DNA from: Deltaproteobacteria bacterium
GTDB taxonomy: Bacteria; Bdellovibrionota_B; Oligoflexia; Oligoflexales; Bog-1112
NCBI GenBank assembly: GCA_020635195.1
Contig: JACKAG010000006.1
Span: forward strand, 4,010-68,009
Reading direction: 5' to 3'
DNA length: 64,000 bases
In this document: piece after piece, positions 33,373-49,281 of the stretch
How positions within the stretch are numbered: the stretch's first letter is position 1
Layout of the letters: each line of letters opens with the position of its first letter
Program-made: the position numbers and the translations under genes
The notes under the pieces: model-generated
The model's input: the letters and a program-made list of their open reading frames with translations, nothing else
The model's database searches: none
Told to the model about the DNA's origin: nothing

Positions 33373-34343
33373 TTCTGATAAGCCTTTTCTTGTTCCTGTC
33401 GGGACAGGTGTTCTCTGATGACCGGAGTTGCTTCCTCTAACGTCAGGAAGTGTTCCGGAATTTTTTTCTCCAGCATAATGATGTGAAACCCATATGTCGA
33501 CTTCAGAATCTCACTGATCTGGCCATGCCTCATAGAAAACGCGACATCAAAAAAATGAGGCATCCTGTATCCTTTTGAAAAAGAAGGGAAAAGACCGCCG
33601 TCTTGGGCCTCAGGAGAGATAGAGTGGGCGATCGCTGTTTTAGCAAAATTGCTGCGTGTTACGGTTGATTTAATCTTTCTGGCCTTTCTTTCATCGGCAA
33701 GAACAATCTGACGGATCACAACCTGGAGCGGCTGAAAAAAAAGATTTTTATTCTTACGGTAATAATCAGAGATATCGTCTTCTGAAATATGGATCTGAGA
33801 GTAAAGCACCTCTTTAAGGTACTGGCGGATCACATCCTGTTCACACAATCTTGCTTTGAGAAAGGCTTTGTCTTGCTCTGAGCTGAAGAGCTTTGGCTGA
33901 GACTGGAGGGCAAGCATCCAGCTGCGGACACACTCAGTATATCGCCCGGGATCATCCAGGGAAAAGTTTTCATCTTTGCTGACGATCTGATAAAGCATGA
34001 GCCTCTCAACCAGACTATCGATAATATTTTCTTTCAGAGGACGGCTGATTTGTCCTGACTCCGGATAAGTTTCTGGAATAGAACTGATATCCTGTTCCTG
34101 CAGATGAGTGGTCAGAACTTTCATTTCAAATTCAACATTTTCCTGCTTAATTTCGATGTCATTCACAGTTACAAGAATATCGTGATCTTTCTGTTGTGTA
34201 TGATATCTGTTACGAATCATTCTGCTGTGACTGTTCTGGGTATTCATCGTCTGCCATATCCAGGCGCCCAAAGCAAAGCAGATGATGAGCAGAAAAGGAA
34301 AGATGGTTTTACTGCTCATGAAAATATAATCCTTATAAGACAA
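33315..34343 (-). CDS. Parvulin-type peptidyl-prolyl isomerase (PrsA/PpiC-like)
   Basis: Signal anchor IFPFLLIICFALGAWIW. C-terminal FDVAFSMRHGQISEILKSTYGFHIIMLEKK is the rotamase motif. Confidence 0.7.
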   Translation of the reverse strand: MSYKDYIFMSSKTIFPFLLIICFALGAWIWQTMNTQNSHSRMIRNRYHTQQKDHDILVTVNDIEIKQENVEFEMKVLTTHLQEQDISSIPETYPESGQISRPLKENIIDSLVERLMLYQIVSKDENFSLDDPGRYTECVRSWMLALQSQPKLFSSEQDKAFLKARLCEQDVIRQYLKEVLYSQIHISEDDISDYYRKNKNLFFQPLQVVIRQIVLADERKARKIKSTVTRSNFAKTAIAHSISPEAQDGGLFPSFSKGYRMPHFFDVAFSMRHGQISEILKSTYGFHIIMLEKKIPEHFLTLEEATPVIREHLSRQEQEKAYQKWVDFALHSTRISTPGTLW

Positions 34344-34388
34344 CTCTGTTCAGATATTTTTTTGCTTCTGATCAGGCTAAAAAGCATC

Positions 34389-35444
34389 TCAGAGTTCAAT
34401 TTCAATGTCCTCAAGATCATCTTCAGAAGGAGCCGACGTTGATAATGTGCTACCGGAAGGCTGTGGAATCACAGGATGCTCCGACAAGAGTTGTCCGCTT
34501 GTTCGTTGAGTCATATCAGATCTTTTATAATGATCATTATCCTCATGTTTTTTAAATGCATCCAGAATACTTCGATATTGATTCATCCATATTCTGCTTT
34601 TTTTGAGTATTTCCATAAAAAATTCTTTATGATCATTTTCATTGTCAGATAACATGGTCTGACAAAGCTTATTAGCTTTATAAAACTGAAACGTCTGACA
34701 ATAGAGTCTGGTCTGTAACATCATTCGCTCTGTATTTAGTGTATTAAAAATACTTAATTTCTCTGCTATTTCAATCGCATCACAATAATAATTCTCTGAT
34801 CTGGCATATAATTTCATGAGATCCCAAGCCGCCCATAAGAGCGTGGGATCTTTTCTGAGTACGTTTTTCAAAATTTTTGAAGCATCTTTTGAACGGTTTA
34901 TATTCTGATATACATAGCTAGAAATTCGCTCGCAGCTCTGATTATTGGCAGATATGCGAAAATTTTTTATTAAAAATTCTATTTTTTTTATATCATTTTT
35001 TTTCATACAGTGATGAATTTCAGATTGATAATAGGACGACGATCCAATCATCTCATGATCATAGATAGCTTTGTTTACAAATGCTTTCAGATGACTCGCT
35101 CTCATTTTTCCTGAAAATATTTTTTCAATACCCAGTTCATTCAGAAGATTCAAAACAGCATCAGATGGTTGACCATCATCATCAAGAATAATAATTTTTC
35201 GACAGAGGACAGGATTACCTTTTGAAAGAGAGGGCAACAAGGACGATATATTCTGAAGACGATCCTGTGTCAGGACCACAGCATGAATATACTGATGATG
35301 GTCTGGAAGTTTCTCCGATGAAAGGAGATTGATTCCTGGTGTTTTTGAAAGGAACTGTGTGAAGGCAGGATATATTCCTTCAACAACAAATTTAATTGGA
35401 TTTTCTGCTATTGAGACATGAGTCTCATGCTCTGCATTCGTCAT
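34389..35444 (-). CDS. Hypothetical protein, possibly a pseudo-receiver plus TPR-like helical repeats
   Basis: 351 aa and AT-rich. HAVVLTQD...RKIIILDDDG...LGIEKIFSGKM...LKAFV follows the strand/helix order of a CheY-like fold without the canonical acidic pocket. The C-terminal half is helical, and the tail is acidic (EDDLEDIEIEL). Confidence 0.4.
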   Translation of the reverse strand: MTNAEHETHVSIAENPIKFVVEGIYPAFTQFLSKTPGINLLSSEKLPDHHQYIHAVVLTQDRLQNISSLLPSLSKGNPVLCRKIIILDDDGQPSDAVLNLLNELGIEKIFSGKMRASHLKAFVNKAIYDHEMIGSSSYYQSEIHHCMKKNDIKKIEFLIKNFRISANNQSCERISSYVYQNINRSKDASKILKNVLRKDPTLLWAAWDLMKLYARSENYYCDAIEIAEKLSIFNTLNTERMMLQTRLYCQTFQFYKANKLCQTMLSDNENDHKEFFMEILKKSRIWMNQYRSILDAFKKHEDNDHYKRSDMTQRTSGQLLSEHPVIPQPSGSTLSTSAPSEDDLEDIEIEL

Positions 35445-35968
35445 AAGGAAACCGTCATTTTCATATTTCTTTTCATGAGAAACTCCTGAAGATGACGATA
35501 AAAATTTGAATCCTTTAAATTTTTATAGATAATTTCAGATCGATCTGATGAATGATCAATCAGCCTTATAAAAACGTCTGAATCTTCCGGATAATTTTGT
35601 ATAAATTCTTTCATCTGAACCACATAGTAATGTTCAAGCCGAAGAAGTACTTTTGGATACTTATTGTTTCTGCTCCAGGGATGGAGCGTTTTTAAAATCC
35701 ACTCTGCCCTTTTTATCAATTTCTTCATGTCTGCATACGCTCTGCTCTGATCCGGATAGGGGATTCCATATTCAGATTCAGCACATATCAGAGACCAGCA
35801 TTCGTGAATTTGCTCCAGATCATCAATAATAATTGTATTGAGATCATTCCAGTGTTCTTTTCTCTCTGATGAAGGATCGATGTCTGCAAGCTGTGAATAA
35901 ATATTAGAAAAAACGATCAGAACCTGATAGATGCATTGTAAATCACCAAAATTTTGTTCTTGTGTCAT
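35441..35968 (-). CDS. Hypothetical helical protein
   Basis: 175 aa and AT-rich, with a 4-nt overlap with the downstream gene. No recognised domain. Confidence 0.45.
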   Translation of the reverse strand: MTQEQNFGDLQCIYQVLIVFSNIYSQLADIDPSSERKEHWNDLNTIIIDDLEQIHECWSLICAESEYGIPYPDQSRAYADMKKLIKRAEWILKTLHPWSRNNKYPKVLLRLEHYYVVQMKEFIQNYPEDSDVFIRLIDHSSDRSEIIYKNLKDSNFYRHLQEFLMKRNMKMTVSL

Positions 35969-36107
35969 CCAAAGCTTTCCTGATTTTTATTATATAAAAA
36001 TTTTTTATATTTTCCAGTCACTTACTATATAAATGTCATGTTTTGTCCATGATGATCCGATCCGAATGTCAGGATTTTTTTACACACCCCCATTATTTTA
36101 GCAGCTG

Positions 36108-37013
36108 ATGGAGTCAGGATCATTGGAAAAACTTACCTGGCACTCTCTAAAAGGAGGACAGGATGGTGCGAGTTTACTGGAATATCTCATTGCAATGACT
36201 ATTTTTTTGGTCGTTGTATTGGGACTTTTTTCAAATATGGATCATATTATCTATTCTGGAAAACTAAATGAAATTGCACCATCTGTTTATGAAAAGGATC
36301 AGGTTGTCCGCTATGAAATTATTACAACGATGGATTATTTTCAGAGAGAACTGATCATTAATGATTGTCCGGATCTTGACGGAGATCAGATACTGGATGA
36401 AAATGAAATTTTCTTCTGCACCAAACCTGCTGAAAAACTAAAGAACTCCCAGCAAAACTTCACCTTTCCACGAACGATCTACTGGGGAAACCACAATGAC
36501 TTATTTCAGGAGCCCTATGTTCGTAATATTATCAATCAGTTTGATACTCTTGTTGCGAGTATGACAGAAAAAAACTCCGGTAAACTTCATTCCTCCTTCA
36601 CGGAAGCTCTCAAATCATGTGAAAATCAATCCTTTAAGATGGATACAGAAGATATTGCAGACAGAAGCTCTTATTTTGTCTGTGGATTTGGAAAAAATAT
36701 TCTCGTTCAGATAAAAGTCAATTTCTGGGATTTTTTATCAGGATCATCTGCAAAGTGCAGGAATCTGAATGCCAAGCCAGGACGCGGACTTCAGGCTGTC
36801 TATCGATTTTTTCATATTGAGCCATATAAAGATGAAGGAAAGCAATTGTATCGTATTGCAATCCATAGTTCAAAATTATTTATCCCTAAAAAAGTAGATG
36901 CCCATTTTATTCCTTCGAGAAATCTGTGGAGTTCTGAATCTGACCCAAAAGATCATGATGGTGGGTCATCTTCTGATGGGAAACCCGATTATATGAAAAA
37001 CTGCAGATCTTAA
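36108..37013 (+). CDS. Prepilin/TadE-like protein (class III signal peptide)
   Basis: The N-terminus ...KGGQDG|ASLLEYLIAMTIFLVVVLGLF has Gly at -1, Glu at +5 and then a hydrophobic helix. It resembles the TadE N-terminal motif. At 301 aa it is unusually large for a pilin. Confidence 0.6.
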   Translation: MESGSLEKLTWHSLKGGQDGASLLEYLIAMTIFLVVVLGLFSNMDHIIYSGKLNEIAPSVYEKDQVVRYEIITTMDYFQRELIINDCPDLDGDQILDENEIFFCTKPAEKLKNSQQNFTFPRTIYWGNHNDLFQEPYVRNIINQFDTLVASMTEKNSGKLHSSFTEALKSCENQSFKMDTEDIADRSSYFVCGFGKNILVQIKVNFWDFLSGSSAKCRNLNAKPGRGLQAVYRFFHIEPYKDEGKQLYRIAIHSSKLFIPKKVDAHFIPSRNLWSSESDPKDHDGGSSSDGKPDYMKNCRS

Positions 37014-37024
37014 AGGATTTTTTC

Positions 37025-39733
37025 ATGTTTCGTTGTGTTCAACTGATCTCTGTCATGAAAGATATGGTACAGAAGATATCTGGGAATTCTGGCCAGACTC
37101 CTATGTTGCTTGTACTGATGCTAAGTGCACTTGGGGTCACAGTTGGCTCTGTTATGCAAAAATATATAGAAAACTCAAACTATGGTATCCGAATTGAGCA
37201 GGATGATCGTTATCTCAGACAGGGTTGCACCGAAGCAATGGAACAGCTGTCTCAGCTGCTCGGTTCCGGGGTTCTTAATATCAATGAACAAAGCATGCGT
37301 TTTGTTCCCAACAGCCATCTCCCATCATCAATTTCTTCAGAAATTGTCGGCGATCAGATCTCAGAATATCAAAGGGGAGGAAGAAACTGGAATCTTTCTT
37401 CTTCGGATGGCTCTGTGAAAGTACGAACCTGTGCGGAAGTAGAGATGAATGAAGGTGATATGTCCCAGATGATGATGAATACGGATCATACGATTCCGAA
37501 TCAACCATGCCAGCATTCCAGAATGACCGCAACGATCTGGCCTGAGAAAATCCTTGATCCTGTAGAAAACCCAGAATATGAACACCTTGTCTGGAAAAAA
37601 GCAGTAGTCAGGGCAAACTGTCAGATGGATTCCGATAAGAAGACACTGGAGAGCCGGGCACGGATTAACTTTCTTCCTCCCTCCCAGATCTGTAATTTTG
37701 AGAATGAAAAAACAAACCCCTACTGTAGTGTTGATCATTGCCGCTATATGATGCCTTTGATGGTTGAGAATCCGGAGCAAGGATCTTCCGAAAACCGGGG
37801 GGATGTTTATTTTCAGAAAGGGGACCAGTTATCAGAAGATATCAACTTAAAACTTGTGCCTAATCCATCTTATGTCGCAAAGATTAAGCTTCCGGTCCCA
37901 AGGAACATCCCAACCATTGCAGCGTATCGTAACTCAGAGGATGCCGCTGATCAACCACTGGAGCTGATCAGCTTTATTAAACAATCAATATGCGCAGGGC
38001 TTAACAATCCTTTTAAAGGTTATCAGGGTGTAGAAGGGACTTATGATATTGAGGATTATTTTTCGGGAGAGCGGGATGAAAATGGTTTCGTGGAGTTTGG
38101 AATACCGGCCTTTTCTCAGATAGATTCTGATGCAGGTCAACAAGCCCGAAGAGCCTTAACCTTTCAGGGTTACCTTTATTTTGATCGTAACACTGAGTTT
38201 TTTAGTAAAAATCCTGAGACTGGCGGAGGAGGGAGCCTTGCCAGAAACTGGGATACAGAGCTGCAACAACAGGACCCTGAGTATCACAAAAAATTATTAC
38301 ATAACGGCTGTGTGCGGACGGTTGGTGTGAGTGACGCAGATTTTTGCTCAAGGGTCAGACTAACTCATGCTTCATTTTCTTATACTTATCCAAGAAAACG
38401 ATTATGCCACTATAAAGGTCCTTCTTATGACCTGGTAAGCCATGATGAATATAAAAAAATTCTTTCTGAGTTACGTCCGGATCTTGATGTCAGTCGTCTT
38501 TATAAATGGGAAGAAAGTGATCTGTCTCTGATCCCCGAATCATCAGAATGGCGTGATACCAATTATCAACAGACAGGAATTTTTCCTCTTGCAGGGGCTG
38601 AGTCCATTCAGACATACGAAGATCCTCAAATATTTTTTCATCATACAGCAACAGAAACATCATCCTTATCAAAGGAATCCGCAAAAGTTCCTCATGATTT
38701 TAGTGGTGTAATCGAATCGTCCATTGATGCTATCGAGGTCCGGAGTGTCACTGAATCATACCAGAAGATCTGTTCTCAGACAGATGAATCATCCGGACAA
38801 TGTCTGCAATGGGAGGCCGGGGAAAAGCTGACAGATGCAGAAAAAATTGCATTACCGGATGCTGACATGATCACTCAGACCAAACTGAAAGAACGTCAGG
38901 TTATCTTACAATGGAAAGCTGACTGTAGCGAAGTCATCGATACAATTCCCGGAGAAAGCATCGAGATTCAACCTGAAGCTATGGCGTTATGTAACTACAG
39001 AGAAACTCCTGTTCGTCCTGTTGTAGAGAAAAAATTTGATCGTTGTTATTACATTGCTTATTACAACAGTGAAAATCGTCTGGGCTGTACGGTAAATTCG
39101 CCATCTGCTGTAGGTGCAAATCCTTATATATGTCGGAACTCTAATGGCTGTTTTGCCAGAGGAACACCTGTTCTGATGGCGGATGGTCAGAGCAAAGCTG
39201 TGGAGCAGATTGTACAAGGAGACTTTGTCCGGAACCCTGTCACAGGACAATCTTCAAGAGTTTCCGCGGTGACGGTTGGACCTCAGCAGAAACCCATGTT
39301 GCGAATTTTTTACGGAGAAGGAAAAAAACTGGAATCCACATGGAATCATCCGTTTCTGACTCCTGAAGGACTGATGAGAGCGGATCAGTTATCTCCTGGT
39401 CAGAAACTACTATTTTTGGGGGATCATTTGTATTTTACGTCTGTGACCAGGATAGAAGAAATCCCTCTGGATTCAGAGCGTCTGGTCTGGAACCTGCTTC
39501 TTGAAAAAGATGAACTTTCAACATATTCCGATATCAACGGCTCTTTTTCAGAAGATTTCATGAAGATCAAAGATCTTCAGCAACATGTCTTTATTGCAAA
39601 TGGTGTTGTAACCGGGGATTATCACATTCAGAGCCTTGAAAATTTTGAAGAAGTTGCCAAATGGTTTCGCCCAGGAGAGAACTTTCCAGAAGCTGCATCA
39701 GACAATGAGGCTTCGGGAAGGCCGGACAGATGA
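37025..39733 (+). CDS. Large Cys-rich pilin-like (TadG/GspK-style, no Glu+5) protein with a C-terminal Hint domain
   Basis: N-terminus KISGNSG|QTPMLLVLMLSALGVTVGSV. About 20 Cys residues lie in the 700-aa middle region. The C-terminal Hint blocks are CFARGTPVLMADG (Cys709), TWNHPFL (TxxH), VWNLLLE and HVFIANGVVTGD. Confidence 0.7.
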   Translation: MFRCVQLISVMKDMVQKISGNSGQTPMLLVLMLSALGVTVGSVMQKYIENSNYGIRIEQDDRYLRQGCTEAMEQLSQLLGSGVLNINEQSMRFVPNSHLPSSISSEIVGDQISEYQRGGRNWNLSSSDGSVKVRTCAEVEMNEGDMSQMMMNTDHTIPNQPCQHSRMTATIWPEKILDPVENPEYEHLVWKKAVVRANCQMDSDKKTLESRARINFLPPSQICNFENEKTNPYCSVDHCRYMMPLMVENPEQGSSENRGDVYFQKGDQLSEDINLKLVPNPSYVAKIKLPVPRNIPTIAAYRNSEDAADQPLELISFIKQSICAGLNNPFKGYQGVEGTYDIEDYFSGERDENGFVEFGIPAFSQIDSDAGQQARRALTFQGYLYFDRNTEFFSKNPETGGGGSLARNWDTELQQQDPEYHKKLLHNGCVRTVGVSDADFCSRVRLTHASFSYTYPRKRLCHYKGPSYDLVSHDEYKKILSELRPDLDVSRLYKWEESDLSLIPESSEWRDTNYQQTGIFPLAGAESIQTYEDPQIFFHHTATETSSLSKESAKVPHDFSGVIESSIDAIEVRSVTESYQKICSQTDESSGQCLQWEAGEKLTDAEKIALPDADMITQTKLKERQVILQWKADCSEVIDTIPGESIEIQPEAMALCNYRETPVRPVVEKKFDRCYYIAYYNSENRLGCTVNSPSAVGANPYICRNSNGCFARGTPVLMADGQSKAVEQIVQGDFVRNPVTGQSSRVSAVTVGPQQKPMLRIFYGEGKKLESTWNHPFLTPEGLMRADQLSPGQKLLFLGDHLYFTSVTRIEEIPLDSERLVWNLLLEKDELSTYSDINGSFSEDFMKIKDLQQHVFIANGVVTGDYHIQSLENFEEVAKWFRPGENFPEAASDNEASGRPDR
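39149..39619 (+). other. Hint (Hedgehog/intein-like) autoprocessing domain, residues about 709-865 of the 902-aa protein
   Basis: Block A is G|CFARGTPVLMADGQSKAVEQIVQGDFV. Block B is STWNHPFLTPEGLMRADQLSPGQKL. Blocks F/G are RLVWNLLLE...HVFIANGVVTGD. The usual terminal His-Asn plus downstream nucleophile is absent (GD-Y instead). Confidence 0.7.
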
Positions 39734-40650
39734 GCAGAATACGAAGTCGTGTGATCATAAGAAAAAGGCAGAGAAAAAATACCCGATGGTCCATGGAGAG
39801 CGGTGTAAGCTTGCTGGAAATGATCATCGTAATCGGTCTGATGGGTCTGCTTCTGTCTCTGAGCACGGCTGTCTATGTCAATCTCGATCTTTTTACAGGA
39901 CGCTACAAATCCAGGCTCTCCGCAAGAAACGAAGCTCTGCAATTGATTGCTATGATCAGAAGACGTTATAACATTGATCTGATAAAAGAAGATGACCCGG
40001 CAAGGAAAGTGGGGAGTAAGTCAGAGCGTATTGAAGGGAAAATAATGGATAAGTCTGGTGATATGATCCAGGGAGTTCTGAGTGTGATTAATACGATTTC
40101 CACCGTGTCGGAAAATAAATCCGTTGATCTGATGACAATCACGAATGGTTGCGTTGAGTTACCGGATCACCTGAAAAATCAGATTCCCATGTTTAATCAG
40201 GATTATTTTCATGTAGTTTTTGATCAGCTCAGAGTCAGTGATTCATATTCAGATGCGTCTTCATCTCCAGGAATTACTGATTTTGCTACGGTTCAGACGA
40301 CCTGCGAGGAGTATCTTCAGGGATTTCAGTGCGGCTATAATTCAGTTCCTTTTATTTCTTTTGATGATGGCAAAAGAGGACTTCAGATCCCTGCTGATAT
40401 GACAAAAAAGGCACGTTTTACATCTGTCCGGGAAAGCGCTGTAGCAGCCTTTATCTGTGATACAGAATCGTTTGGCGAAGCAGATCTCAGATTATTCAAA
40501 GATATTACGGTCTTTATTGCAACATTTGATATGTCGAAAAAAAATCATCCGGACCCTGCAAAACGACTTCACTGGCAAAAATTCAGGAGTATCTTTTCGG
40601 TTTCCTCTCCTTCTGAAAATGTCGAGTTTATTTCAGACAAGGGTCTGTAG
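39730..40650 (+). CDS. Type IV pilin/pseudopilin-like protein
   Basis: MESG|VSLLEMIIVIGLMGLLLSLSTAVYV is a classical N-methylation-type motif with Glu+5. The start is either the ATG at 39730 (ATGA overlap with the Hint gene stop, giving a long basic leader) or the ATG at 39793 (leader MESG). Confidence 0.65.
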   Translation: MSRIRSRVIIRKRQRKNTRWSMESGVSLLEMIIVIGLMGLLLSLSTAVYVNLDLFTGRYKSRLSARNEALQLIAMIRRRYNIDLIKEDDPARKVGSKSERIEGKIMDKSGDMIQGVLSVINTISTVSENKSVDLMTITNGCVELPDHLKNQIPMFNQDYFHVVFDQLRVSDSYSDASSSPGITDFATVQTTCEEYLQGFQCGYNSVPFISFDDGKRGLQIPADMTKKARFTSVRESAVAAFICDTESFGEADLRLFKDITVFIATFDMSKKNHPDPAKRLHWQKFRSIFSVSSPSENVEFISDKGL

Positions 40651-40789
40651 CGCTTACCTGAAAGATCGTCCTGACTTATCCTGAAAAATTTTTATGTTAA
40701 ATTTGCACTCTTCGGTCTGTTTTTAAACAAAAAAGTCATATTTTATTTGTATTTTCCGATGCTCATATAGAGGTTTTTAAGGAGATGAT

Positions 40790-42634
40790 ATGGGCATATC
40801 GGGAGTTGTGAAAGTTTCATCGCATCATGCGATCCCTGATGCACAGACTTTTACTGATATTATCTCGCCATCACAGCCTTTTCTTCTGGCGGAGAATGTG
40901 ACAGAGCGATTTCCTTTCCAGCCGGAGTTGCCTGCTTCACATCCTGCGCTGAAATCCGATTATCTGATTCTGAAGTCTATGAAAGGCTCCTTATTTTTTG
41001 CTTCAGAATCCTTTCGTGATGAAAGCTTATACCTGAAGATGGTGATAGAAAAAAATCGTGAACTGGCCTCTATACTGCGCTATAGCAAATTTATGGAATA
41101 TCACAAAATCGTTGAGGAGCGGCTCTTGCGGCATCTCTTCCAGGAGCATTTACGGAAGACAGCAGAAAAATTTGAGAAAAGGGCTGTCAAGGTTCATCAG
41201 CAAAAGGATTTATTTACAGAGCTCCGCCAGACATCATCTGATATAAGAAGAGAACTCTTTTCTTTTTTATTATCGATCCGGGATGACAGCAGACAGGATT
41301 ATCATCGGATGTTCTGGGATGCGGTCCGGAAGAATCTTGAGCAGGAGCCGTCAGCTGTTATTTTATCATCAACAAATTTACAAGAACTTCTGACGGGTTT
41401 TCGCTATGAGGAAAGTGAGGGATCTCTGCTAAGGGCTATTTTTCTCCTGAAAGAGAATCAGCTGAGAGCCAGGGCCTCTCAGATTCTCGAACATGTATCA
41501 GGGCTTTCCTTGCCAGCAGCGTTGCATCCTCTTTTCAGGCTCCACTTTCACAGACAGAGTTTTGAAAAAGAACTTCAGACTGAACTTAGCAAGAAAAGGT
41601 CTGACGTTTTTATGAAAAACCTTGCAACATCATCACTTCGTTCTCACTTTCGTCAGTTCTTATCTGATCAGAGCCTTTCTGTAGCCTCTGAGGGAGTTCC
41701 GCTGAGCTTACGGCCTCAGACATGGACATCTTATGCGACTCCCGAAAATCAACAAGGCAATATGCGGGCAATATCAGGAGGGTCTGAACCTTATACACAG
41801 ATCTCATCATTGCAGAATAAGATCTCTCAGATTCCTTCAAAAGGAAGCATAGCACCATTGTTTTTAGCACTTGGTTTTTTTCCGGAAAAAACAGAATTTA
41901 CTTCACCTGAAGCATCTGTCATATCTTTGCAGAATATCCCGCCAGCTATGGTGACCACACATATCAGCAAGGACCAGGCCGGAACGCTTTTCCCTCCCAC
42001 AGACCTGCTCCCAAAAACCCAAACAGAAAGGATACATTCAGATTCTGATCAGTCTGTGTCAGGATTTTATATTCAGTCTTTCCTGACTCCGGCAGAGCAG
42101 AGCTTTTTATCCCGCTCTCTTCCTTCAAAAGACAGGCATCTTTATCGATTTGAAGCCGTATACCTCCTGCAAACATCCACAAATATTATAAAACAACCAG
42201 CGGTCTTAAGCTGGAACTCAGGAGAAGCAAGAGATCTCGAACAAAAGGCTCAGATCAGTATGGAAGTACGTCCTGATATCGGACATTCAAAAGAGAACAC
42301 AGAGCCTATGAAGGATCCGTTTACTCAGGAGAGAAGAGTCGATCACAACCGCAATTATCCACAGCAATTCAGAGTGATTACAGAACATGATCTGGCATTT
42401 TTCGGAAATCCTGTGATGACATCAGAACTGAGCCGAACCTCTGTTTTTCTGAAGCACTACAGTCAGACTGAGAACCCTCCGGACTCCTTTGAAAACAAGG
42501 TAATTCGTGCAGGGCAGATAAAAAAATCATCTCATTCAACAGAAACAGCCCCCTTCGTATCTTTGAAGGGATCAGAGAAGCCAGAAATCCCTGTTTTTAC
42601 CCGTGACAATTTTTCTAAACCCCGAAAAGACTGA
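40790..42634 (+). CDS. Hypothetical 614-aa protein, last gene of the pilin/Hint cluster
   Basis: Strong RBS (AAGGAG) upstream of the ATG. No signal peptide or TM segment. The N-terminal third is helical and the C-terminal half is Ser/Pro/Thr/Gln-rich. No recognised domain. Confidence 0.6.
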   Translation: MGISGVVKVSSHHAIPDAQTFTDIISPSQPFLLAENVTERFPFQPELPASHPALKSDYLILKSMKGSLFFASESFRDESLYLKMVIEKNRELASILRYSKFMEYHKIVEERLLRHLFQEHLRKTAEKFEKRAVKVHQQKDLFTELRQTSSDIRRELFSFLLSIRDDSRQDYHRMFWDAVRKNLEQEPSAVILSSTNLQELLTGFRYEESEGSLLRAIFLLKENQLRARASQILEHVSGLSLPAALHPLFRLHFHRQSFEKELQTELSKKRSDVFMKNLATSSLRSHFRQFLSDQSLSVASEGVPLSLRPQTWTSYATPENQQGNMRAISGGSEPYTQISSLQNKISQIPSKGSIAPLFLALGFFPEKTEFTSPEASVISLQNIPPAMVTTHISKDQAGTLFPPTDLLPKTQTERIHSDSDQSVSGFYIQSFLTPAEQSFLSRSLPSKDRHLYRFEAVYLLQTSTNIIKQPAVLSWNSGEARDLEQKAQISMEVRPDIGHSKENTEPMKDPFTQERRVDHNRNYPQQFRVITEHDLAFFGNPVMTSELSRTSVFLKHYSQTENPPDSFENKVIRAGQIKKSSHSTETAPFVSLKGSEKPEIPVFTRDNFSKPRKD

Positions 42635-42821: not shown

Positions 42822-44450
42822 ATGTCAGATAAAAAAATTCCCGATCCGGAAGATATTCAGAGAGAATTTGAGGACTTCGTTCAAAAACGTTTTGGCAAAA
42901 ATATTCAGGTTTTTGCTCAGGAGTTGCCCTCCTCTTTTCTTTCGAAAGAAAAAACAGAACCGGAGGAAAAAAACGATCTTCAGGAAGAAAAGAAACTGGA
43001 TGAGAAAATTTTTTCCTTTAATATGAAACCCAAAGATCTGAAAGAGCAACTGGATCGCTTTATTATCGGACAGGATGAAGCCAGAAAAGCGCTGTCGATT
43101 GCTGTCTGTGATCACTATAATCAGGTGTCTTTGCATCATCGTCATCCGGATCTGGATGATCATGCCTATTATGCGAAACAGAATGTTCTGGTTCTTGGCC
43201 CTACTGGTGTTGGAAAAACCTGCATGATCCGGCATATCGCTGAAATGGTAGGAGTTCCTTTTGTCAAGGCAGATGCAACCCGCTTCTCTGAAACGGGTTA
43301 TATGGGAGCCAATGTTGATGATCTGATCCGGGATCTGGTGACTCAGGCAGATGGAAATATTCAGCTGGCTCAGTATGGCATTGTTTATCTTGATGAAGTC
43401 GACAAACTGGCTCAGGCGCCCGGCCATGTCGGAAGAGATGTAAGCGGCAGGGGAGTACAGCTGGGGCTGCTTAAGCTGATGGAAGATACAGATATCGATC
43501 TCAGGGCAGCCCATGATCCTGCATCTCAGATGCAGATTTTTATGGAGATGCAGCAAAAAGGGAAGGTCGAAAAACAGCTGATCAGTACCCGTCATATTCT
43601 TTTTATTGTAAGTGGAGCTTTTACCGGACTTGAGACGATCGTCAGTAAACGGCTAAACCGATCCTCAATCGGCTTCGATCAGGCAGCAAAAGAAACTATA
43701 GATCGCTATGAGCTACTTGCAGAGGCCATGACCGAGGACTTTGTTCTTTATGGATTTGAGCCGGAGTTTGTTGGTCGGCTTCCGGTCCGGGTCGCCTGTC
43801 ATCCTCTGGATGAGGAAAAACTCTTTGAAATTCTGAAACACTCAGAAGGATCGATTATCAGACAATATAAGCAGGCATTCCATAGCTATGGAATTCATCT
43901 TAGCTTTGAAGATGCCGCACTCAGGGAGATTGCCAGGCAAGCATCCCGGGAAGAAACCGGAGCCCGGTCATTGATGACGATCTGTGAAAAAATCTTCCGT
44001 TGTTTTAAATATGAATTACCATCTTCCTCAATACAGGAACTGGTGGTTTCAGAAGATGTCGTCCGGGACCCTGCCGGGTCTTTGCAGCGCCTGCTCAGAG
44101 ATGCCCCGCAGACAGATCCTGTCGACATTCGTGAGATCCGTCTCTTTGAGGAAAATTTTTTCCGGAAGTACCGGATGAAGATATGCTTTTCACCTGAAGC
44201 TCGCAATCTGATTTGCCAGTCGGCACAGACAAAGCATGTTGGGATTGGACAGTTCTGTCAGAATCTTCTGGAAAATTATGAACATGCTCTGATGCTGATA
44301 AGCCAGAAGACCGGAGTCAATGAGTTTATTCTTAAAGAAGATGTCGTCAGAGATCCGCAACAGGCTCTGGAAGTGATGGTCCGGGAATCCTGCATCCAGA
44401 GCTCTTCCGATCAATCCGAGAAAAGAGAACCGCAAAGCCCTGTTCTCTGA
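42822..44450 (+). CDS. ClpX-like AAA+ unfoldase paralog lacking the N-terminal zinc-binding domain
   Basis: Motifs LDRFIIGQDEARKAL, Walker A GPTGVGKT, pore loop GYMG, Walker B IVYLDEVDK, RDVSGRGVQLGLLKLMEDT, an IGF tripeptide (SSIGFDQ) and sensor-2 GARSL. There is no Cys cluster in the first 80 aa. An extra C-terminal segment of about 130 aa is present. Confidence 0.8.
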   Translation: MSDKKIPDPEDIQREFEDFVQKRFGKNIQVFAQELPSSFLSKEKTEPEEKNDLQEEKKLDEKIFSFNMKPKDLKEQLDRFIIGQDEARKALSIAVCDHYNQVSLHHRHPDLDDHAYYAKQNVLVLGPTGVGKTCMIRHIAEMVGVPFVKADATRFSETGYMGANVDDLIRDLVTQADGNIQLAQYGIVYLDEVDKLAQAPGHVGRDVSGRGVQLGLLKLMEDTDIDLRAAHDPASQMQIFMEMQQKGKVEKQLISTRHILFIVSGAFTGLETIVSKRLNRSSIGFDQAAKETIDRYELLAEAMTEDFVLYGFEPEFVGRLPVRVACHPLDEEKLFEILKHSEGSIIRQYKQAFHSYGIHLSFEDAALREIARQASREETGARSLMTICEKIFRCFKYELPSSSIQELVVSEDVVRDPAGSLQRLLRDAPQTDPVDIREIRLFEENFFRKYRMKICFSPEARNLICQSAQTKHVGIGQFCQNLLENYEHALMLISQKTGVNEFILKEDVVRDPQQALEVMVRESCIQSSSDQSEKREPQSPVL

Positions 44451-44596
44451 GCGTCGTCAGAACATCCGAGTCCTCCGGACTTTAATCTGAAAACATCATT
44501 TTTTGTCATCCTGTCATGATCAGAAAAATCAGTTTTCCCTGAATAATTCCGATTGTTCCAGACAGAGCAGACCAGCCCGACTCTGCTCTGTCATGG

Positions 44597-45100
44597 ATGC
44601 TTATATCTGAGGTTCTGGAATTGGGACATCTGAAGGTTGTGATCAGAGAACAGGAAGGACGTGCCAGATATACCCTGGCAGGCGATGTGGATGAGGCCAT
44701 CTCGCAGGAGAGCTTTCCCGCAACAGATCTCAATGAGGTGATCCTTGATCTTTCCGGGATCATGAGCTTCAATTCCTGCGGTTTGAGAGAGTGGATTCGC
44801 TGGATTCAGATCTTTTCCTCTCATCATAAAGTTTACTTTGAGAACTGCTCTGTACCCACCATTGATCAGATGAATATGATGCCTCAGACTATGGGGAAAG
44901 GGACTGTTCTGTCTTTTTATGCTCCTTATTATTGTGAAACCTGTGGAGAAGTCAATCAGCTGGTTCTTATGGATCGCTACGCTGAAATGCTCCGGCAGAA
45001 AAAAGCTCCGGACTTTTCTTGTGAAACCTGTGGTGATGTTCTCTGTTTTGATGCGCTGGCAGCGAGTTATTTTTTATTTGCAGACAGTCGCGCAGGATGA
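44597..45100 (+). CDS. STAS-like domain protein with a C-terminal CxxC...CxxC zinc ribbon
   Basis: ILDLSGIMSFNSCGLREWIRWI is typical of STAS / anti-sigma-antagonist folds. It is followed by CETCGEV...CETCGDV. The gene lies directly upstream of cheA. Confidence 0.5.
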   Translation: MLISEVLELGHLKVVIREQEGRARYTLAGDVDEAISQESFPATDLNEVILDLSGIMSFNSCGLREWIRWIQIFSSHHKVYFENCSVPTIDQMNMMPQTMGKGTVLSFYAPYYCETCGEVNQLVLMDRYAEMLRQKKAPDFSCETCGDVLCFDALAASYFLFADSRAG

Positions 45101-45150
45101 ATATAGCAAAGAAATATTGACCGGATCAGAAAGACGATAATGGAGATGGG

Positions 45151-47544
45151 ATGATGGGAATGGATGCACTCACACAAAAGGCTTTTGAAGCACTGGTGAA
45201 AGACATTCTTCCCAGACTTGCTTCTCATCTGAGTTCTCTGGAAGCTCTGGCTCCAGAATCACGGGAATCTGATAATGACTGTCGTTTTCTGATCAGGGAA
45301 GCCTCTGAGCTATTAAAGCTCATGGATAAATGGAGTCAGAGTTCTGCTAAAACAGATCTGCCAGAGCACGATATTTCCGAAATTCCGGAAACATCGACTC
45401 AGGAAGAATATCCGGCCGATTCTGTCACAGAAGAGTCCGATCCTTCGGCAGAAATGAGTGATGATGAAGCCCGCAGATTGCTGGCAATGATGGATGGAAC
45501 TGACTCATCTCCGCCAACTCCTGCCAAAAATCACTGTGATTCCAGCTCTGACATGAGTGATGAAGAAGCTATGGCCGCACTGGCTGCGATGGACAGCCCG
45601 GTGCAGGAGTCCTCCTCTGACAGCGGAGACGAAGACGATGATGCAGCTCTGAAAATGCTGGCCCGACTTGAAGAAGAGGCCGAAGGCACCCCCGGCGCAA
45701 CCCAGGACTCACAGGAGCCCTCAGCAACAACAGGAAGCGCGCCTGCTTTTACTGATGAGATAGTAGAAGAAGTTGAAGAATTCGGAGAGAGTGAATTTAG
45801 CTCAGATCCTGATATGATCCAGGATTTTATCACCAATGCTGATGAACTCATGGAAAATCTGGATACACAAGTTCTGGCTCTTGAAAAATCACCGACAAGT
45901 CAGGAAATCATCAACGAAATTTTTCGCTCTGCCCATACCCTGAAAGGGGCTGCTGGTATGTTTGCATTCCGTGCGATTGAACGGATTATGCACCGGATGG
46001 AGAACTATTTTGATCAGATCAGTAAGGGCAAACAAACGGTAAGTGGGGCTGCTGTTGACGTGCTTTTTAGCGCAATGGATATTCTGAGACATCTGATTGA
46101 TGGAGTCAGAAATGGCAAACCCACGGGTCGCCAGACTGCTCAGATTGTTCATCAGCTTAACCAGCTTTGTGCAGGAACATTAATATCATCCTCTGCCAGC
46201 CATGCATCTTCCCCTAAGGAAAAAGAAGAAGAACAGGCGACAGAAAATCCAGCAGATGACACAGCAAAAAAGCAAAAGCAGTCGACAATCCGGGTTGATC
46301 TTCAACGGCTTGATGCTCTTGTGAATCTGGTAGGGGAGCTGGTGATTGACAGAACACGTTTTATGAGTATTGAAGAACAGCTCAGAATAAAAGGACCTCA
46401 TCCGAACCTTGCCGGAAATATGTCAGAAACAGTTCAGCTTTTTGGGCGCCATATGAATGAAGTCCAGGACATTATTATGAAAGTCAGGATGGTCCCTATC
46501 GGAAATGCTTTTAATAAATATACGAGGATTGTCCGTGATCTGTCCAGGAGCCTTGGAAAAGAAATTGACCTGATTATTGACGGAGAGCACACAGAGCTGG
46601 ATAAAACGATTGTGGAAGAAATCGGTGATCCTCTGATCCATCTGATCCGTAACTCAGTCGATCATGGAATAGAACTTCCTGAAGACAGGGTTTCAGCAGG
46701 CAAAAAATCGCGAGGAAAAATTATGCTTGCCGCTCGTCAGGAAGGAAACCAGATTATGATCACGATTGAGGACGACGGAAAAGGTATGGCTAAGGAGAAA
46801 ATTCGTCAGAAGGGCATAGAAAAAGGTCTGATTAAAGAAGATGATAATTTAAGCGATCGTGATATTTTCAGTCTGATTTTTGAGCCTGGATTTTCGACGG
46901 CTGATCAGGTCACCAATATTTCCGGTCGTGGTGTTGGGATGGATGTTGTAAAGCGACAGATTCTGAAATTAAAAGGAAATATTGACATCCATTCTGAAGC
47001 TGGCGTTGGTACAAGCATTTCAATTCAGTTACCACTGACTCTGGCTATTGTACAGAGCTTACTTGTTAAATCAAAAGAAGATGTCTTTGCGATCCCTCTG
47101 AGTACTGTTGTGGAATCGATCCGGATTAAACCGTCGGATCTGCAACGGGTCGGGGACTCTGAGGTCATCAGACGTCGCAACAGAGTGCTTCCTCTGTTTC
47201 ATCTTCATGATGTTCTGGATCTGGATCAGAAAGCAAATCACTTCTGGTATCAGTCCCCTGAACATGAGCACTCACATGGTCGCAGGAAAAAAAACAAAGT
47301 CTATGAAGAGCGTTTATTTGTCGTGGTTGTCGGGACAGCAGAAAGAAGATTTGGCCTGATCGTAGATTCCCTCTTAAATCAACAGGAAATGGTGATTAAG
47401 TCGATGGGAAATCTGATGGCAGATATTCCCTGCGTTGCAGGAGGAGCGATCCTTGGGAACGGAGAAGTGGTGCTGGTTCTGGATATTGTCGAAATGGAAA
47501 GTTATTTTCGTCATAAAGTCCGGGGAATTCAGCAAGTCGCATAA
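45151..47544 (+). CDS. cheA: Chemotaxis histidine kinase CheA (P1-P3-P4-P5, no P2, long acidic N-terminal extension)
   Basis: HPt motif FRSAHTLKGAAGMF (His262). P3 is IRVDLQRLDALVNLVGELVI. The N box is HLIRNSVDHGIE, G1 is EDDGKGM, the F box is FEPGFST and G2 is GRGVGMDVV. A CheW-like P5 forms the C-terminus. Confidence 0.9.
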   Translation: MMGMDALTQKAFEALVKDILPRLASHLSSLEALAPESRESDNDCRFLIREASELLKLMDKWSQSSAKTDLPEHDISEIPETSTQEEYPADSVTEESDPSAEMSDDEARRLLAMMDGTDSSPPTPAKNHCDSSSDMSDEEAMAALAAMDSPVQESSSDSGDEDDDAALKMLARLEEEAEGTPGATQDSQEPSATTGSAPAFTDEIVEEVEEFGESEFSSDPDMIQDFITNADELMENLDTQVLALEKSPTSQEIINEIFRSAHTLKGAAGMFAFRAIERIMHRMENYFDQISKGKQTVSGAAVDVLFSAMDILRHLIDGVRNGKPTGRQTAQIVHQLNQLCAGTLISSSASHASSPKEKEEEQATENPADDTAKKQKQSTIRVDLQRLDALVNLVGELVIDRTRFMSIEEQLRIKGPHPNLAGNMSETVQLFGRHMNEVQDIIMKVRMVPIGNAFNKYTRIVRDLSRSLGKEIDLIIDGEHTELDKTIVEEIGDPLIHLIRNSVDHGIELPEDRVSAGKKSRGKIMLAARQEGNQIMITIEDDGKGMAKEKIRQKGIEKGLIKEDDNLSDRDIFSLIFEPGFSTADQVTNISGRGVGMDVVKRQILKLKGNIDIHSEAGVGTSISIQLPLTLAIVQSLLVKSKEDVFAIPLSTVVESIRIKPSDLQRVGDSEVIRRRNRVLPLFHLHDVLDLDQKANHFWYQSPEHEHSHGRRKKNKVYEERLFVVVVGTAERRFGLIVDSLLNQQEMVIKSMGNLMADIPCVAGGAILGNGEVVLVLDIVEMESYFRHKVRGIQQVA

Positions 47545-47558
47545 CATGAGGGGCAGCT

Positions 47559-48134: not shown

Positions 48135-48426
48135 GCACCATGTGCATGAAAAAACCATTAAAATTATCTATTTATGTATCCAATGCTGTGGATATTATCT
48201 AAAGTCGCATACAACTCCATTAAAGCCCATCTGAATCTTTGATTCTCCATACATCGGATTTCCTGATGGAATTTAAACTCTGAAATATTCAACCTTGAGT
48301 CTTTTTATCTATGCTTGCTGCCGGAAGATCAGACATGAGACACTCAGATACGTGAATGTTTTCGTGATGAGAATGCAGAGAGCTTTCTTTAAGCGGAGGC
48401 CCGGATAACTGAGCAGGAGCAGGTAT

Positions 48427-49269: not shown

Positions 49270-49281
49270 AGAAAGGTCACA

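Follow-up and report, generated by a model that had tools for sequence, protein, structure and literature searches.

Bacterial intein-like (BIL) domains have been known since 2003, and the domain described here is another member of this known kind, which leaves the general picture of BIL domains unchanged. B-type BIL domains were reportedly described by Amitai et al. in 2003, and C-type BIL domains of predatory bacteria, found with a PPS-1 domain, are said to have been described by Dori-Bachash et al. in 2009. Outside the BIL domains, G↓C-F (the arrow marks the cleaved bond) is the cleavage-site tripeptide of Hedgehog, inteins that end in Asp remain capable of cyclisation and cleavage, and non-cleaving Hint-like modules exist in nature. 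Among minor pilins, PilX and GspK lack Glu5, and we know of no PilX or GspK that carries a Hint domain. In B-type BIL domains, which lack His-Asn, cleavage is uncoupled from splicing and is reported to occur at both ends (PMC4031507, PMC7765530); uncoupling is described for BIL domains without His-Asn in general (PMC4031507). Hedgehog forms a thioester at its Gly-Cys bond (PMC5874633), and BIL2 of Tetrahymena thermophila conjugates its own N-terminal ubiquitin-like domain to Lys of other proteins (PMC8616854). A further article briefly mentions PPS-1 in connection with C-type BIL domains (PMC9185962).

The window, by which we mean the whole 64-kb stretch of DNA analysed here, contains a gene for a 902-aa protein that ends in a Hint domain and lies between two prepilin-like genes. 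The product is listed at NCBI, with an identical sequence, as 'MAG: hypothetical protein H6618_05255 [Deltaproteobacteria bacterium]', and its full-length relatives share 39-45 % identity (P0002) or 23-29 % identity (P0004-P0014) with it. The features of this gene set are as follows:

36108..37013, + strand: upstream prepilin-like gene, 301 aa, …GQDG↓ASLLEYLIAMTIFLVVV…, with weak N_methyl, ComGE and GspI N-terminal matches
37025..39733, + strand: gene for the Hint-bearing protein, 902 aa, from the open reading frame list
37082..37159, + strand: N-terminal anchor, residues 20-45, G-N-S-G23↓QTPMLLVLMLSALGVTVGSVM, where a Gly occupies the prepilin cleavage position ahead of a hydrophobic helix
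39044..39148, + strand: conserved Cys-rich module that leads up to the predicted cleavage site, residues 674-708, C674-Y-Y-x-x-Y…R685..C688…C703-R704-N705-x-x-G708
39730..40650, + strand: downstream prepilin-like gene, 306 aa, …MESG↓VSLLEMIIVIGLMGLLLSL…, with a weak N_methyl match and a G↓xxxxE motif

The two flanking genes encode the only canonical combinations of G↓xxxxE and a hydrophobic N-terminus in the window (G↓ASLLE and G↓VSLLE), and the ATG of the downstream gene overlaps the stop codon of the Hint gene (ATGA). Homologues of both are present in the relatives' loci L001/L005 and L004; canonical prepilin genes adjoin the Hint gene in these and also in L085, L086, L087 and L088, and this adjacency persists in relatives down to 19-22 % overall identity. 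We found no pilus assembly genes in the checked parts of the window and saw no conserved partner gene besides pilins at the relatives' loci examined.

The anchor of the Hint protein reads G23↓QTPML and, lacking Glu at +5, falls outside the G↓(F/M/A/S)xxxE pattern (PF07963/TIGR02532). G23 is nearly invariant in two alignments of relatives, whose anchors have Q(R/K)G(A/S)(S/T) ahead of a hydrophobic stretch. No pilin-type Pfam model matched the 902-aa protein at E <= 1, and no Pfam, PDB or structural relative was found for its 708-residue N-domain. The preliminary description had called this N-terminal part pilin-anchored; the prepilin genes on both sides agree with that, but the anchor is of the PilX/GspK kind without Glu5 and not that of a canonical pilin. 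Taken together, the short N-terminal motif and the neighbouring genes suggest that the Hint domain belongs to a tip minor pilin of the PilX/GspK type. Export is indicated across the family, whose N-termini carry either a PilX-like anchor or a lipoprotein signal peptide. A literature search on type IV pili and type II secretion found no tip-type minor pilin that sheds its own C-terminal domain, and the pilus-operon context of a terminal Hint domain appears to be undescribed.

The fold of the C-terminal domain was assigned from sequence, profile, model and fold searches. As a single sequence compared with PDB chains, the protein matched the Tetrahymena BIL2 Hint domain (E 1.6e-6), and a 33-sequence family profile matched BIL2 at E 1.6e-13 and the Clostridium thermocellum BIL domain at E 2.5e-12. 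An AlphaFold2 model of the Hint domain, built from the 33-sequence family alignment, had a pLDDT of 89.1 and a pTM of 0.84. In a Foldseek search of the PDB with this model, the best 50 matches were all Hint-fold structures (BIL2, inteins and Hedgehog 1at0) with a probability of 1.00; the best match was again BIL2 (E 1.4e-10), and TM-scores normalised to target length were 0.89 for gp41-1 and 0.79 for Hedgehog 1at0. The searches and the predicted structure agree on a horseshoe-like Hint fold, and among solved structures the domain is closest to BIL domains, inteins and Hedgehog. Against Pfam and NCBIfam, the 902-aa protein matched Hom_end_hint (5.6e-5), Vint (0.009) and intein_Nterm (0.031), in each case short of the curated cut-off, and the Pfam scan gave no match to Hint_2 (PF13403) at E <= 1 and none to Hint (PF01079). 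Relatives scored 13.6-26 bits against Hint_2, over the first ~28 model positions only and with a cut-off of 28.4 bits, and weakly, at 16.6-20.7 bits, against Hint (cut-off 29.7). The subtype is not reliably captured by any Pfam or NCBIfam model scanned, and no curated family model covers it.

In an exhaustive HMMER search, for which the library had been clustered at 50 % identity, the same domain turned up in at least 111 sequence clusters. Conservation was scored in 111 representatives that were chosen by a profile containing the scored residues, so that the counts below overstate it somewhat:

39149..39619, + strand: Hint domain, Cys709 to Asp865
39149..39154, + strand: block A, Cys709-Phe710; C 110/110, F 108/111
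39338..39349, + strand: block B, T772-W-N-H775; T 101 and S 9 of 111, H 111/111
39491..39493, + strand: Asn823 in V-W-N-L; N 111/111
39584..39586, + strand: His854, the block-F/G His of H-x-F-x-A-N-G; H 102/111
39614..39619, + strand: Gly864-Asp865, at the site of the intein penultimate His and terminal Asn; G 110/111, D 111/111
39620..39631, + strand: Y866-H-I-Q869, a hydrophobic-x-hydrophobic-Gln motif right after the Asp; Q869 111/111, position 866 L/Y/F/W/M/H/Q
39620..39730, + strand: C-terminal tail, residues 866-902, 37 aa, net acidic, with the stop codon at 39731-39733

These positions confirm the preliminary description, which had placed a Hint domain at 39149-39619, that is, exactly Cys709-Asp865 (the Asp865 codon ends at 39619), and every sequence feature that it named lies where it had been put. 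The Cys709 codon, tgt, occupies 39149-39151 directly after Gly708, within NSNGCFARG (residues 705-713); TWNHPFL, with T772 and H775, spans residues 772-778; the F/G-like blocks RLVWNLLLE and HVFIANGVVTGDY are residues 819-827 and 854-866; Gly-Asp-Tyr is residues 864-866; and the 37-residue tail, with 8 Asp/Glu and 4 Lys/Arg, is indeed acidic. The profile alignments to PDB chains, together with the structure model and its fold matches, put Cys709 and the TxxH motif at the positions expected for blocks A and B. In these alignments Cys709 pairs with BIL2 residue 1 (Ala in the solved C1A mutant), T772-W-N-H775 with T-V-N-H of BIL2 (family profile against the PDB), and His854 with the His of HNFFANG in BIL2. 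The register suggests that Asn823 occupies the block-F position (intein block F:4), which is Asp in many inteins.

Upstream of the domain, the scissile Gly708 (Gly-1) is kept in 110/110 family representatives. C674, C688, C703, R704 and G708 of the Cys-rich module are invariant in 29 full-length relatives, and R704 is found in 81/111 family representatives. Downstream, the Hint domain is always at the extreme C-terminus, followed by a tail of 8-55 aa (median 19; 111 representatives), and the residue after the Asp (L78, Y12, F9, W5, M3, H3, Q1) is never Cys, Ser or Thr. The absence of a C-extein and of a +1 nucleophile, noted earlier from Tyr866 and the short tail of this protein, holds for all 111 representatives. 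A weak F-x-x-F-[LM] motif recurs in the tails of the closest subfamily.

One earlier interpretation is not borne out in the form given. Gly-Asp-Tyr had been read as a lost His-Asn motif, but Asp865 (111/111) falls precisely where the terminal Asn of inteins lies, and Gln869 is equally invariant (111/111). Counted on from the printed alignment, A858-N-G860-V-V-T-G-D865 corresponds to A-N-G-V-L-A-(H)-N143 of BIL2, so that Asp865 follows the conserved Gly of A-[ND]-G by five positions, as does the terminal Asn of inteins. Tandem Hint arrays found in the same search end in canonical His-Asn, and because of this we regard Gly-Asp as a subtype signature and not as decay. The full signature is G↓C-F … T-x-x-H … V-x-N … A-[DN]-G-x-x-[TS]-G-D-hydrophobic-x-hydrophobic-Q, and it marks a large, tightly conserved and barely described subtype of terminal Hint domains, with at least 111 clusters.

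N-terminal autocleavage is the mechanism best supported by these sequence features, and we estimate a probability of about 60% that the Hint domain cuts itself off its PilX/GspK-like host within the minor-pilin set, in a single turnover and without splicing. We infer the following course for the reaction, its location in the cell and its effect on pilus assembly. The gene set would be a three-gene minor-pilin set consisting of a prepilin gene, the Hint gene as the PilX/GspK-like member, and a second prepilin gene. The last 194 residues of the exported Hint protein would be a self-processing BIL-type Hint domain plus its short tail. The N-terminal hydrophobic helix would anchor the host protein in the inner membrane and leave the remainder in the periplasm, where the Hint domain would fold. 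Cys709, the predicted nucleophile of an N-S acyl shift and aided by Thr772 and His775, would then attack the carbonyl of Gly708 at the predicted scissile bond, Gly708↓Cys709, and the resulting thioester would be resolved by water or another nucleophile. The products would be a Cys-rich pilus-type part of 708 residues, with Gly708 at its end, and the freed Hint domain with its tail. Asp865 and Gln869, which presumably lie beside the active site, probably help to resolve the thioester. Classical protein splicing, which had not been predicted earlier either, is excluded by the architecture as read from the sequence: lacking both a +1 nucleophile and a C-terminal domain, the protein would not splice two functional exteins.

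The preliminary description had restricted the reaction to the N-terminal end. A Hedgehog/BIL-like reaction at Gly708↓Cys709 is still the natural reading, but the invariant Asp865 leaves the word "only" unjustified. Because Asp865 is invariant and exactly at the intein terminal-Asn position, we entertain a catalytic role for it, possibly in thioester resolution or possibly in C-terminal cleavage. In the latter case both ends would be cut: Asp865 would cyclise, like the terminal Asn or Asp of inteins, and free the tail, whose new amino group might, in the manner proposed for A-type BIL domains, attack the Gly708 thioester and so ligate the tail to the 708-residue part. The register and conservation of Asp865 (111/111) fit this course, as does the conserved hydrophobic-x-hydrophobic-Gln after it, which could be retained in a mature product, and there are precedents in the atypical C-terminal cleavage reported for B-type BIL domains without His-Asn (PMC7765530) and in A-type BIL domains, which ligate their flanks without a +1 nucleophile (PMC4031507). 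However, in 110/111 representatives Gly stands in place of the penultimate His that helps inteins to cyclise, residues 866-869 (162-165 of the AlphaFold2 model) are modelled confidently within the folded unit as a short helix (block pLDDT 85-91), and beyond Gln869 the tails vary in sequence as well as in length (8-55 aa), which argues against a functional ligated product. We consider cleavage at both ends unlikely. We would also give a small chance, by analogy, to transfer of the thioester, in which Gly708 would become covalently joined, through an amine or hydroxyl, to a Lys of a neighbouring minor pilin, to peptidoglycan, to a lipid or to a prey-surface molecule. Such a transfer would be in keeping with BIL2 as the nearest solved relative by both sequence and fold, and with the occurrence of the same end-domain on lipoproteins and on pilus-type proteins, both of them envelope-anchored; moreover, invariant Gly-1, Asp865 and Gln869 and a conserved upstream Cys-rich module exceed the apparent needs of plain hydrolysis. 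Yet the idea is drawn purely from Hedgehog cholesterol transfer and BIL2 Lys conjugation, no acceptor can be identified from the sequence, the Hedgehog sterol-recognition region is much longer and less variable than the tail, and the only conserved neighbours seen are pilins. A bolder and quite improbable form of it would make the terminal Hint domain a built-in, ATP-independent ligase that charges Gly708 of a pilus-tip subunit as a thioester and passes it to an amine. The amine may belong to a Lys of an adjacent minor pilin, to peptidoglycan or to a prey-cell molecule, and the invariant Asp865 and Gln869 may position or activate the incoming nucleophile. If true, this would give a covalently locked or adhesive tip to a type IV-like filament of a Gram-negative predator lineage, and lipoproteins that carry this module would be tethered in the envelope by it.

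That the domain is a silent Hint fold with a structural or binding role, in a protein that remains full-length, would agree with the natural occurrence of non-cleaving Hint-like modules and with the scores below threshold against curated Hint models; we judge it very unlikely, since the invariance of Gly-1, Cys1 and the block-B His over 111 divergent clusters is hard to explain without catalysis. The last candidate was a pre-toxin Hint domain that releases the C-terminal toxin of a polymorphic toxin. Homologue P0002 has a precomputed match to PT-HINT (PF07591), several relatives reach the threshold of that model, and the Streptomyces umbrella-toxin protein 8w20 is among the PDB sequence matches, but the 902-aa protein itself has no PT-HINT match at E <= 1 in the Pfam scan. 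The stretch behind the domain is too short for a toxin (37 aa here, family range 8-55 aa), and the next gene encodes a prepilin and not an immunity-like protein, so that the architecture contradicts this candidate and leaves it extremely improbable.

Under the preferred reading, N-terminal autocleavage, an Oligoflexia-like tip-type minor pilin may mature by shedding its own C-terminal domain. The invariant Asp at the intein-Asn site offers a clean test of the role of that position where splicing is impossible, and small terminal Hint domains that cleave only at the N-terminus would be useful as purification tags and for generating C-terminal thioesters.

Compared with described systems, the Hint protein shares with the PilX/GspK tip minor (pseudo)pilins the Gly at the cleavage position, the lack of Glu5 and the hydrophobic helix, and it is likewise the largest member among a few adjacent minor-pilin genes. 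Unlike them, it is rich in Cys and much bigger, with 708 aa ahead of the Hint domain, and no sequence or profile similarity was detected beyond the N-terminal motif. With class 1 inteins, the domain shares the fold and blocks A, B, F and G in register, but it has no terminal Asn, penultimate His, +1 Cys/Ser/Thr or C-extein, no homing endonuclease and no insertion in a conserved housekeeping protein. A-type BIL domains are defined by His-Asn without a +1 nucleophile, and here His-Asn is absent; the match to the closest solved one, 2LWY, covers the N-terminal three quarters only (profile against the PDB). Hedgehog Hog/Hint (PDB 1AT0) is alike in that its Hint module is C-terminal and its cleavage site is G↓C-F, and it undergoes N-terminal cleavage only, without splicing, with the N-terminal product as the functional part. 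Hedgehog differs in being eukaryotic, in having a sterol-recognition region after the Hint domain and in transferring cholesterol, whereas the tail here is shorter and variable, down to 8 aa in relatives.

The best solved match by sequence and fold, Tetrahymena thermophila BUBL BIL2 (PDB 6Y75/6TMM), likewise shows a Gly ahead of residue 1, T-x-N-H as its block B and, close to the end, H-x-F-x-A-N-G. In contrast, BIL2 ends in His-Asn and has a ubiquitin-like domain on each side, joined via an isopeptide bond (PMC8616854), while the pilus-protein domain ends in Gly-Asp and has a short tail as its C-flank. B-type BIL domains (Hint_2, PF13403) are also bacterial Hint domains on secreted or variable proteins, with the N-terminal Cys and block B kept and with neither a His-Asn block G nor a +1 nucleophile. 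The sequence pattern of the family described here fits this type in that block G is replaced (111 representatives); the domain differs from the B type in the end motif G-D-hydrophobic-x-hydrophobic-Q and in always being terminal, and the 902-aa protein gives no Hint_2 match at E <= 1. The named relatives of the Hint protein come from Pseudobacteriovorax and Oligoflexales MAGs, which we take to belong to Bdellovibrionota, the phylum of Bdellovibrio. Compared by description only, C-type BIL domains have the same host lineage and also follow a conserved domain. If the GD…Q subtype is the C-type BIL domain, then the Hint subtype has already been described and only its pilus-operon context would be new.

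The 902-residue Hint protein is identical to H6618_05255 from a 'Deltaproteobacteria bacterium' MAG in NCBI, where it is annotated as hypothetical and no more. A preliminary description had predicted N-terminal cleavage only, in the manner of Hedgehog or bacterial intein-like (BIL) domains, at Gly708-Cys709, and the sequence details on which it relied were borne out. Cys709 (codon tgt, 39149-39151) stands directly after Gly708, the base at which the domain was said to end, 39619, is the last of the Asp865 codon, and every motif that was quoted is present in the Hint protein. A promoter and terminator scan of 35.8-41 kb of the window gave no signal exceeding shuffled expectation.

Features of the Hint gene and its translated ORF
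37025..39733, + strand: Hint-protein ORF, 902 aa
Residues 705-713, + strand, translated ORF: NSNG-CFARG, with the predicted cut point after Gly708
Starting at residue 772, + strand, translated ORF: T772-W-N-H775-PFL, block B
Residues 819-827, + strand, translated ORF: RLVWNLLLE
Residues 854-866, + strand, translated ORF: HVFIANGVVTGDY
Residues 866-902: C-terminal tail, 37 aa, with 8 acidic versus 4 basic residues

Curated models matched the Hint protein weakly, with Pfam Hom_end_hint at 5.6e-5 and Vint at 0.009, and NCBIfam intein_Nterm at 0.031 along with some intein-containing equivalogs, all of them below cut-offs. The single Hint-protein sequence matched the Hint domain of Tetrahymena BIL2 with an E value of 1.6e-6, and a profile of A4, a 33-sequence alignment of the domain, matched in the PDB BIL2 (1.6e-13), the Clostridium thermocellum BIL (2LWY; 2.5e-12) and the Streptomyces umbrella-toxin protein 8W20 (9.9e-12), with many inteins next. 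When A4 and BIL2 are aligned, G-C-F lies over G-A-F (from the BIL2 C1A mutant), T-x-N-H-P-F over T-V-N-H-R-F, and H-x-x-x-A-D/N-G-V-V-T over H-N-F-F-A-N-G-V-L-A. The AlphaFold2 model of the Hint domain that we used took the 33-sequence alignment as input and had a pLDDT of 89.1 and a pTM of 0.84; three-sequence input gave a pLDDT of 48 and was discarded. In a Foldseek comparison of this model with the PDB, the best 50 matches were all Hint-fold proteins, including BIL2 (E 1.4e-10), the NpuDnaB, SspDnaB, gp41-1 and RecA inteins, the C. thermocellum BIL, and Hedgehog 1AT0 (TM-score of 0.79 normalised to target length). Because the sequence and profile matches, the AlphaFold2 model and Foldseek all agree on the Hint fold, the identity of Cys709-Asp865 as a Hint domain is confirmed, far beyond chance. 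A search of the window found no second Hint domain.

Counting on from the BIL2 alignment, the end of BIL2 reads A-N-G-V-L-A-x-N143 and that of the Hint protein A858-N-G860-V-V-T-G864-D865, with the final residue fifth after the conserved Gly in both. This equal spacing places Asp865 at the terminal-Asn position of inteins and A-type BILs, and Gly864 at that of their penultimate His. The residues Gly-Asp-Tyr that the preliminary description had read at this site are as stated, but the position is not simply degenerate, because Asp865 is among the most conserved in the domain (111/111). The four residues that follow it (hydrophobic-x-hydrophobic-Gln) are conserved too, and AlphaFold2 models them with good confidence as a short helix. 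Farther along the otherwise variable tail (window 39620-39730; columns ~1160-1190 of the family alignment A3), members of the closest subfamily have a weak aromatic motif ~15-25 residues past the Asp, for example EEFGNFM, EQFTAFI, RSFTQFM, AKFDDFL and FNEFL, which in the Hint protein itself reads EEVAKWF.

A word-indexed protein search, run with the whole protein and with its Hint region, brought up the protein itself and two relatives, P0002 at full length (39-45 % identity) and P0003 as a fragment, and the same two were found when a 29-sequence alignment served as the query. We rejected near-uniqueness of the Hint protein as an artefact of the word index, since the family surfaced in an exhaustive HMMER search, in which a three-sequence profile gave 10,412 matches at E <= 0.001 among 1.84 billion representatives, 36 of them at E <= 1e-30. 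Among the 150 best of the 10,412 matches, 111 carry just one Hint domain, which reaches to within a few residues of the protein end; the other 39 differ, and those inspected are tandem Hint arrays.

Conservation among the 111 single-Hint representatives (library clustered at 50 % identity)
Gly-1: 110/110
Cys1: 110/110
Phe2: 108/111
Block-B Thr/Ser: 110/111
His775: 111/111
Asn823: 111/111
His854: 102/111
Gly864: 110/111
Asp865: 111/111
Gln869: 111/111

The residue after Asp865 (+1) in these representatives is Leu in 78, Tyr in 12, Phe in 9, Trp in 5, Met in 3, His in 3 and Gln in 1, and Cys, Ser or Thr in none, and 8 to 55 residues (median, 19) follow the Asp. These counts are to some extent circular, as the collecting profile itself contains residues counted as conserved; despite this, we regard full invariance across representatives clustered at 50 % as strong evidence of selection. 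In ten members, Pfam gave marginal matches scattered over Vint, PT-HINT, Hom_end_hint, Intein_splicing, Hint and Hint_2, and it has no model that captures the subtype with the terminal G-D…Q motif. A scan of a genome collection with A3 found mostly actinomycete Hint domains and one true relative, at locus L005 (the same sequence as L001); one of the two patterns used is a generic Hint motif, and the scan therefore says little on taxonomic spread. Named members come from Pseudobacteriovorax and Oligoflexales MAGs, both of which we take to belong to Bdellovibrionota, and are annotated 'Hint domain-containing protein'. One relative, WP_132318267, belongs to the culturable Pseudobacteriovorax antillogorgiicola.

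Arrays of 3-7 back-to-back Hint units were seen in P0015, P0016, P0022, P0026, P0027, P0029 and others, HMMER matches that lie outside the window. In the arrays inspected, a unit closes with a canonical …V-H-N and is followed by the (G)n-C-F of the next, and by this sequence pattern they would be tandem A-type-like BIL arrays.

The N-terminus of the Hint protein reads …G-N-S-G23, with the prepilin cleavage position after G23, followed by Q-T-P-M-L-L-V-L-M-L-S-A-L-G-V-T-V-G-S-V-M. Full-length relatives have Q-(R/K)-G-(A/S)-(S/T) and then a hydrophobic helix at the same stretch, and G23 is nearly invariant. The Hint protein has no Glu at +5; Glu5 is also absent from PilX and GspK, which are tip subunits in type IV pili and in the pseudopili of type II secretion, and we infer a PilX/GspK-like assignment for this N-terminus. 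The pilin-type family models of Pfam and NCBIfam gave no match to the protein. Residues 46-708 contain many invariant Cys, and no relative of this region emerged from profile searches of the PDB, Pfam and NCBIfam. The region ends, just before the predicted cleavage site, in a conserved module, C674-Y-Y…R685..C688…C703-R-N-x-x-G708.

The Hint gene lies between two prepilin-like genes, the second of which overlaps its stop codon by ATGA; no further canonical prepilin N-termini were found in the window.

Prepilin-like genes flanking the Hint gene
36108-37013: upstream gene, 301 aa, canonical N-terminus G-ASLLE (cut after G), then a hydrophobic helix
39730-40650: downstream gene, 306 aa, canonical N-terminus G-VSLLE (cut after G), then a hydrophobic helix

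The prepilin-Hint-prepilin arrangement recurs around P0002 (locus L001, identical to L005, from an Oligoflexales MAG) and P0003 (L004), and also at far more distant members, P0004 of Pseudobacteriovorax antillogorgiicola (L085), P0018 (L086), P0020 (L087) and P0055 (L088), where the neighbours read G-FTLLE, G-FTIIE, G-FTLAE, G-FSLIE and similar (cut after G). A second architecture places the same terminal G-D…Q Hint domain on small (300-460 aa) predicted lipoproteins that have a signal peptide, a lipobox Cys and low-complexity linkers and that stand alone, without pilin neighbours (P0050, P0052-P0054, P0065, P0067, P0074, P0082, P0084 and others; for example, L089 5001-6041).

At L004 (8262-10600), the Hint-protein homologue occupies two ORFs of 558 and 199 aa, with the break right after ~40 Asp codons. 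We rejected the 199-aa ORF as a naturally free-standing Hint protein; the run of Asp codons on a pilon-polished contig points to a probable assembly frameshift. The upstream pilin-like gene at this locus (7327-8284) is likewise split.

No pilus assembly gene was found among the larger window ORFs scanned. The flanks hold two SurA-like genes and, over 42822-50397, a gene for an AAA_2/ClpB-like AAA+ ATPase, a chemotaxis-type cluster of CheA with Hpt/CheW domains followed by CheW, and a gene for a ParA/MinD-like ATPase. The GC content falls to 0.35-0.43 over 34000-42000, where the pilin/Hint cluster lies together with two minus-strand genes that carry no annotation (34389-35968), versus ~0.51 at 22-32 kb. 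The order SurA-SurA-(351/419 aa)-(175/171 aa)-pilin-Hint-pilin is kept in L001/L005, and the low-GC region is therefore not an obvious recent insertion. Directly 3' of the cluster, a 614-aa ORF (40790-42634) has no family match and no counterpart at that place in L001. An ORF at 8090-9238 has a TrbI-like (conjugation/type IV secretion) match of 34.7 against a Pfam cut-off of 35 bits; its neighbours include several large minus-strand ORFs, of which those scanned gave no match.

The best-supported reading of these sequences is that the protein is exported and that its Hint domain would act as a single-turnover module for self-processing. The N-terminal helix would tether the Hint protein to the inner membrane and leave the remainder in the periplasm; export of the family is supported by the anchor and lipoprotein signals that occur across its members. 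Once the Hint domain had folded, Cys709, with Thr772 and His775, would convert the Gly708-Cys709 peptide bond to a thioester, and resolution of the thioester would part the 708-residue portion from the Hint domain and tail. We put the probability that plain N-terminal cleavage is the main outcome at about 0.6. Classical splicing is excluded by the architecture, which has no +1 nucleophile and no C-extein. This is in line with the preliminary description, which predicted no splicing, and with the cleavage uncoupled from splicing that is reported for BILs without block G (PMC4031507). Asp865 could possibly serve as a general base in hydrolysis of the thioester.

The same residue might instead cyclise and cleave the C-terminal side as well, an outcome that we consider unlikely. 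Asp cyclisation with C-terminal cleavage is known for inteins that end in Asp. For B-type BILs, too, C-terminal cleavage is reported, by an atypical mechanism (PMC7765530). By analogy, there is a small chance that the thioester is handed to a specific nucleophile. Hedgehog transfers to cholesterol in this way. BIL2, which is the closest relative of known structure, joins its N-terminal ubiquitin-like domain to lysines (PMC8616854). It is quite improbable that the Hint domain is silent, and a role in toxin release is more improbable still; toxin-sized sequence is absent after the Hint domain, and a polymorphic-toxin reading was rejected. A mobile intein was rejected too, as the protein lacks both an endonuclease and a +1 nucleophile and has no conserved site of insertion in a host protein.

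Bacterial intein-like autoprocessing domains without a splicing architecture are already known, and relatives of the Hint protein are labelled Hint-domain proteins in NCBI. To a specialist in Hint domains, N-terminal self-cleavage would be the expected prediction for this sequence. In the literature searched, we found no account of Hint domains that sit consistently on PilX/GspK-like proteins encoded within sets of minor-pilin genes, nor of the invariant G-D…Q end motif. The Hint protein resembles Hedgehog and B-type BIL modules in its terminal Hint domain, its G-C-F site and its predicted N-terminal cleavage without splicing. It differs from class 1 inteins, as tests for a terminal Asn, a +1 nucleophile and a C-extein each found none, and from A-type BILs in having no His-Asn, and by model score it is not a member of Pfam Hint_2, PT-HINT or Hedgehog Hint. 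A 2009 study (Dori-Bachash) reportedly described a 'C-type BIL' in Bdellovibrio and other predators, with a 'PPS-1' domain in front. The G-D…Q subtype may be this C-type BIL, and both the lineage and the conserved upstream domain of the Hint protein fit it.
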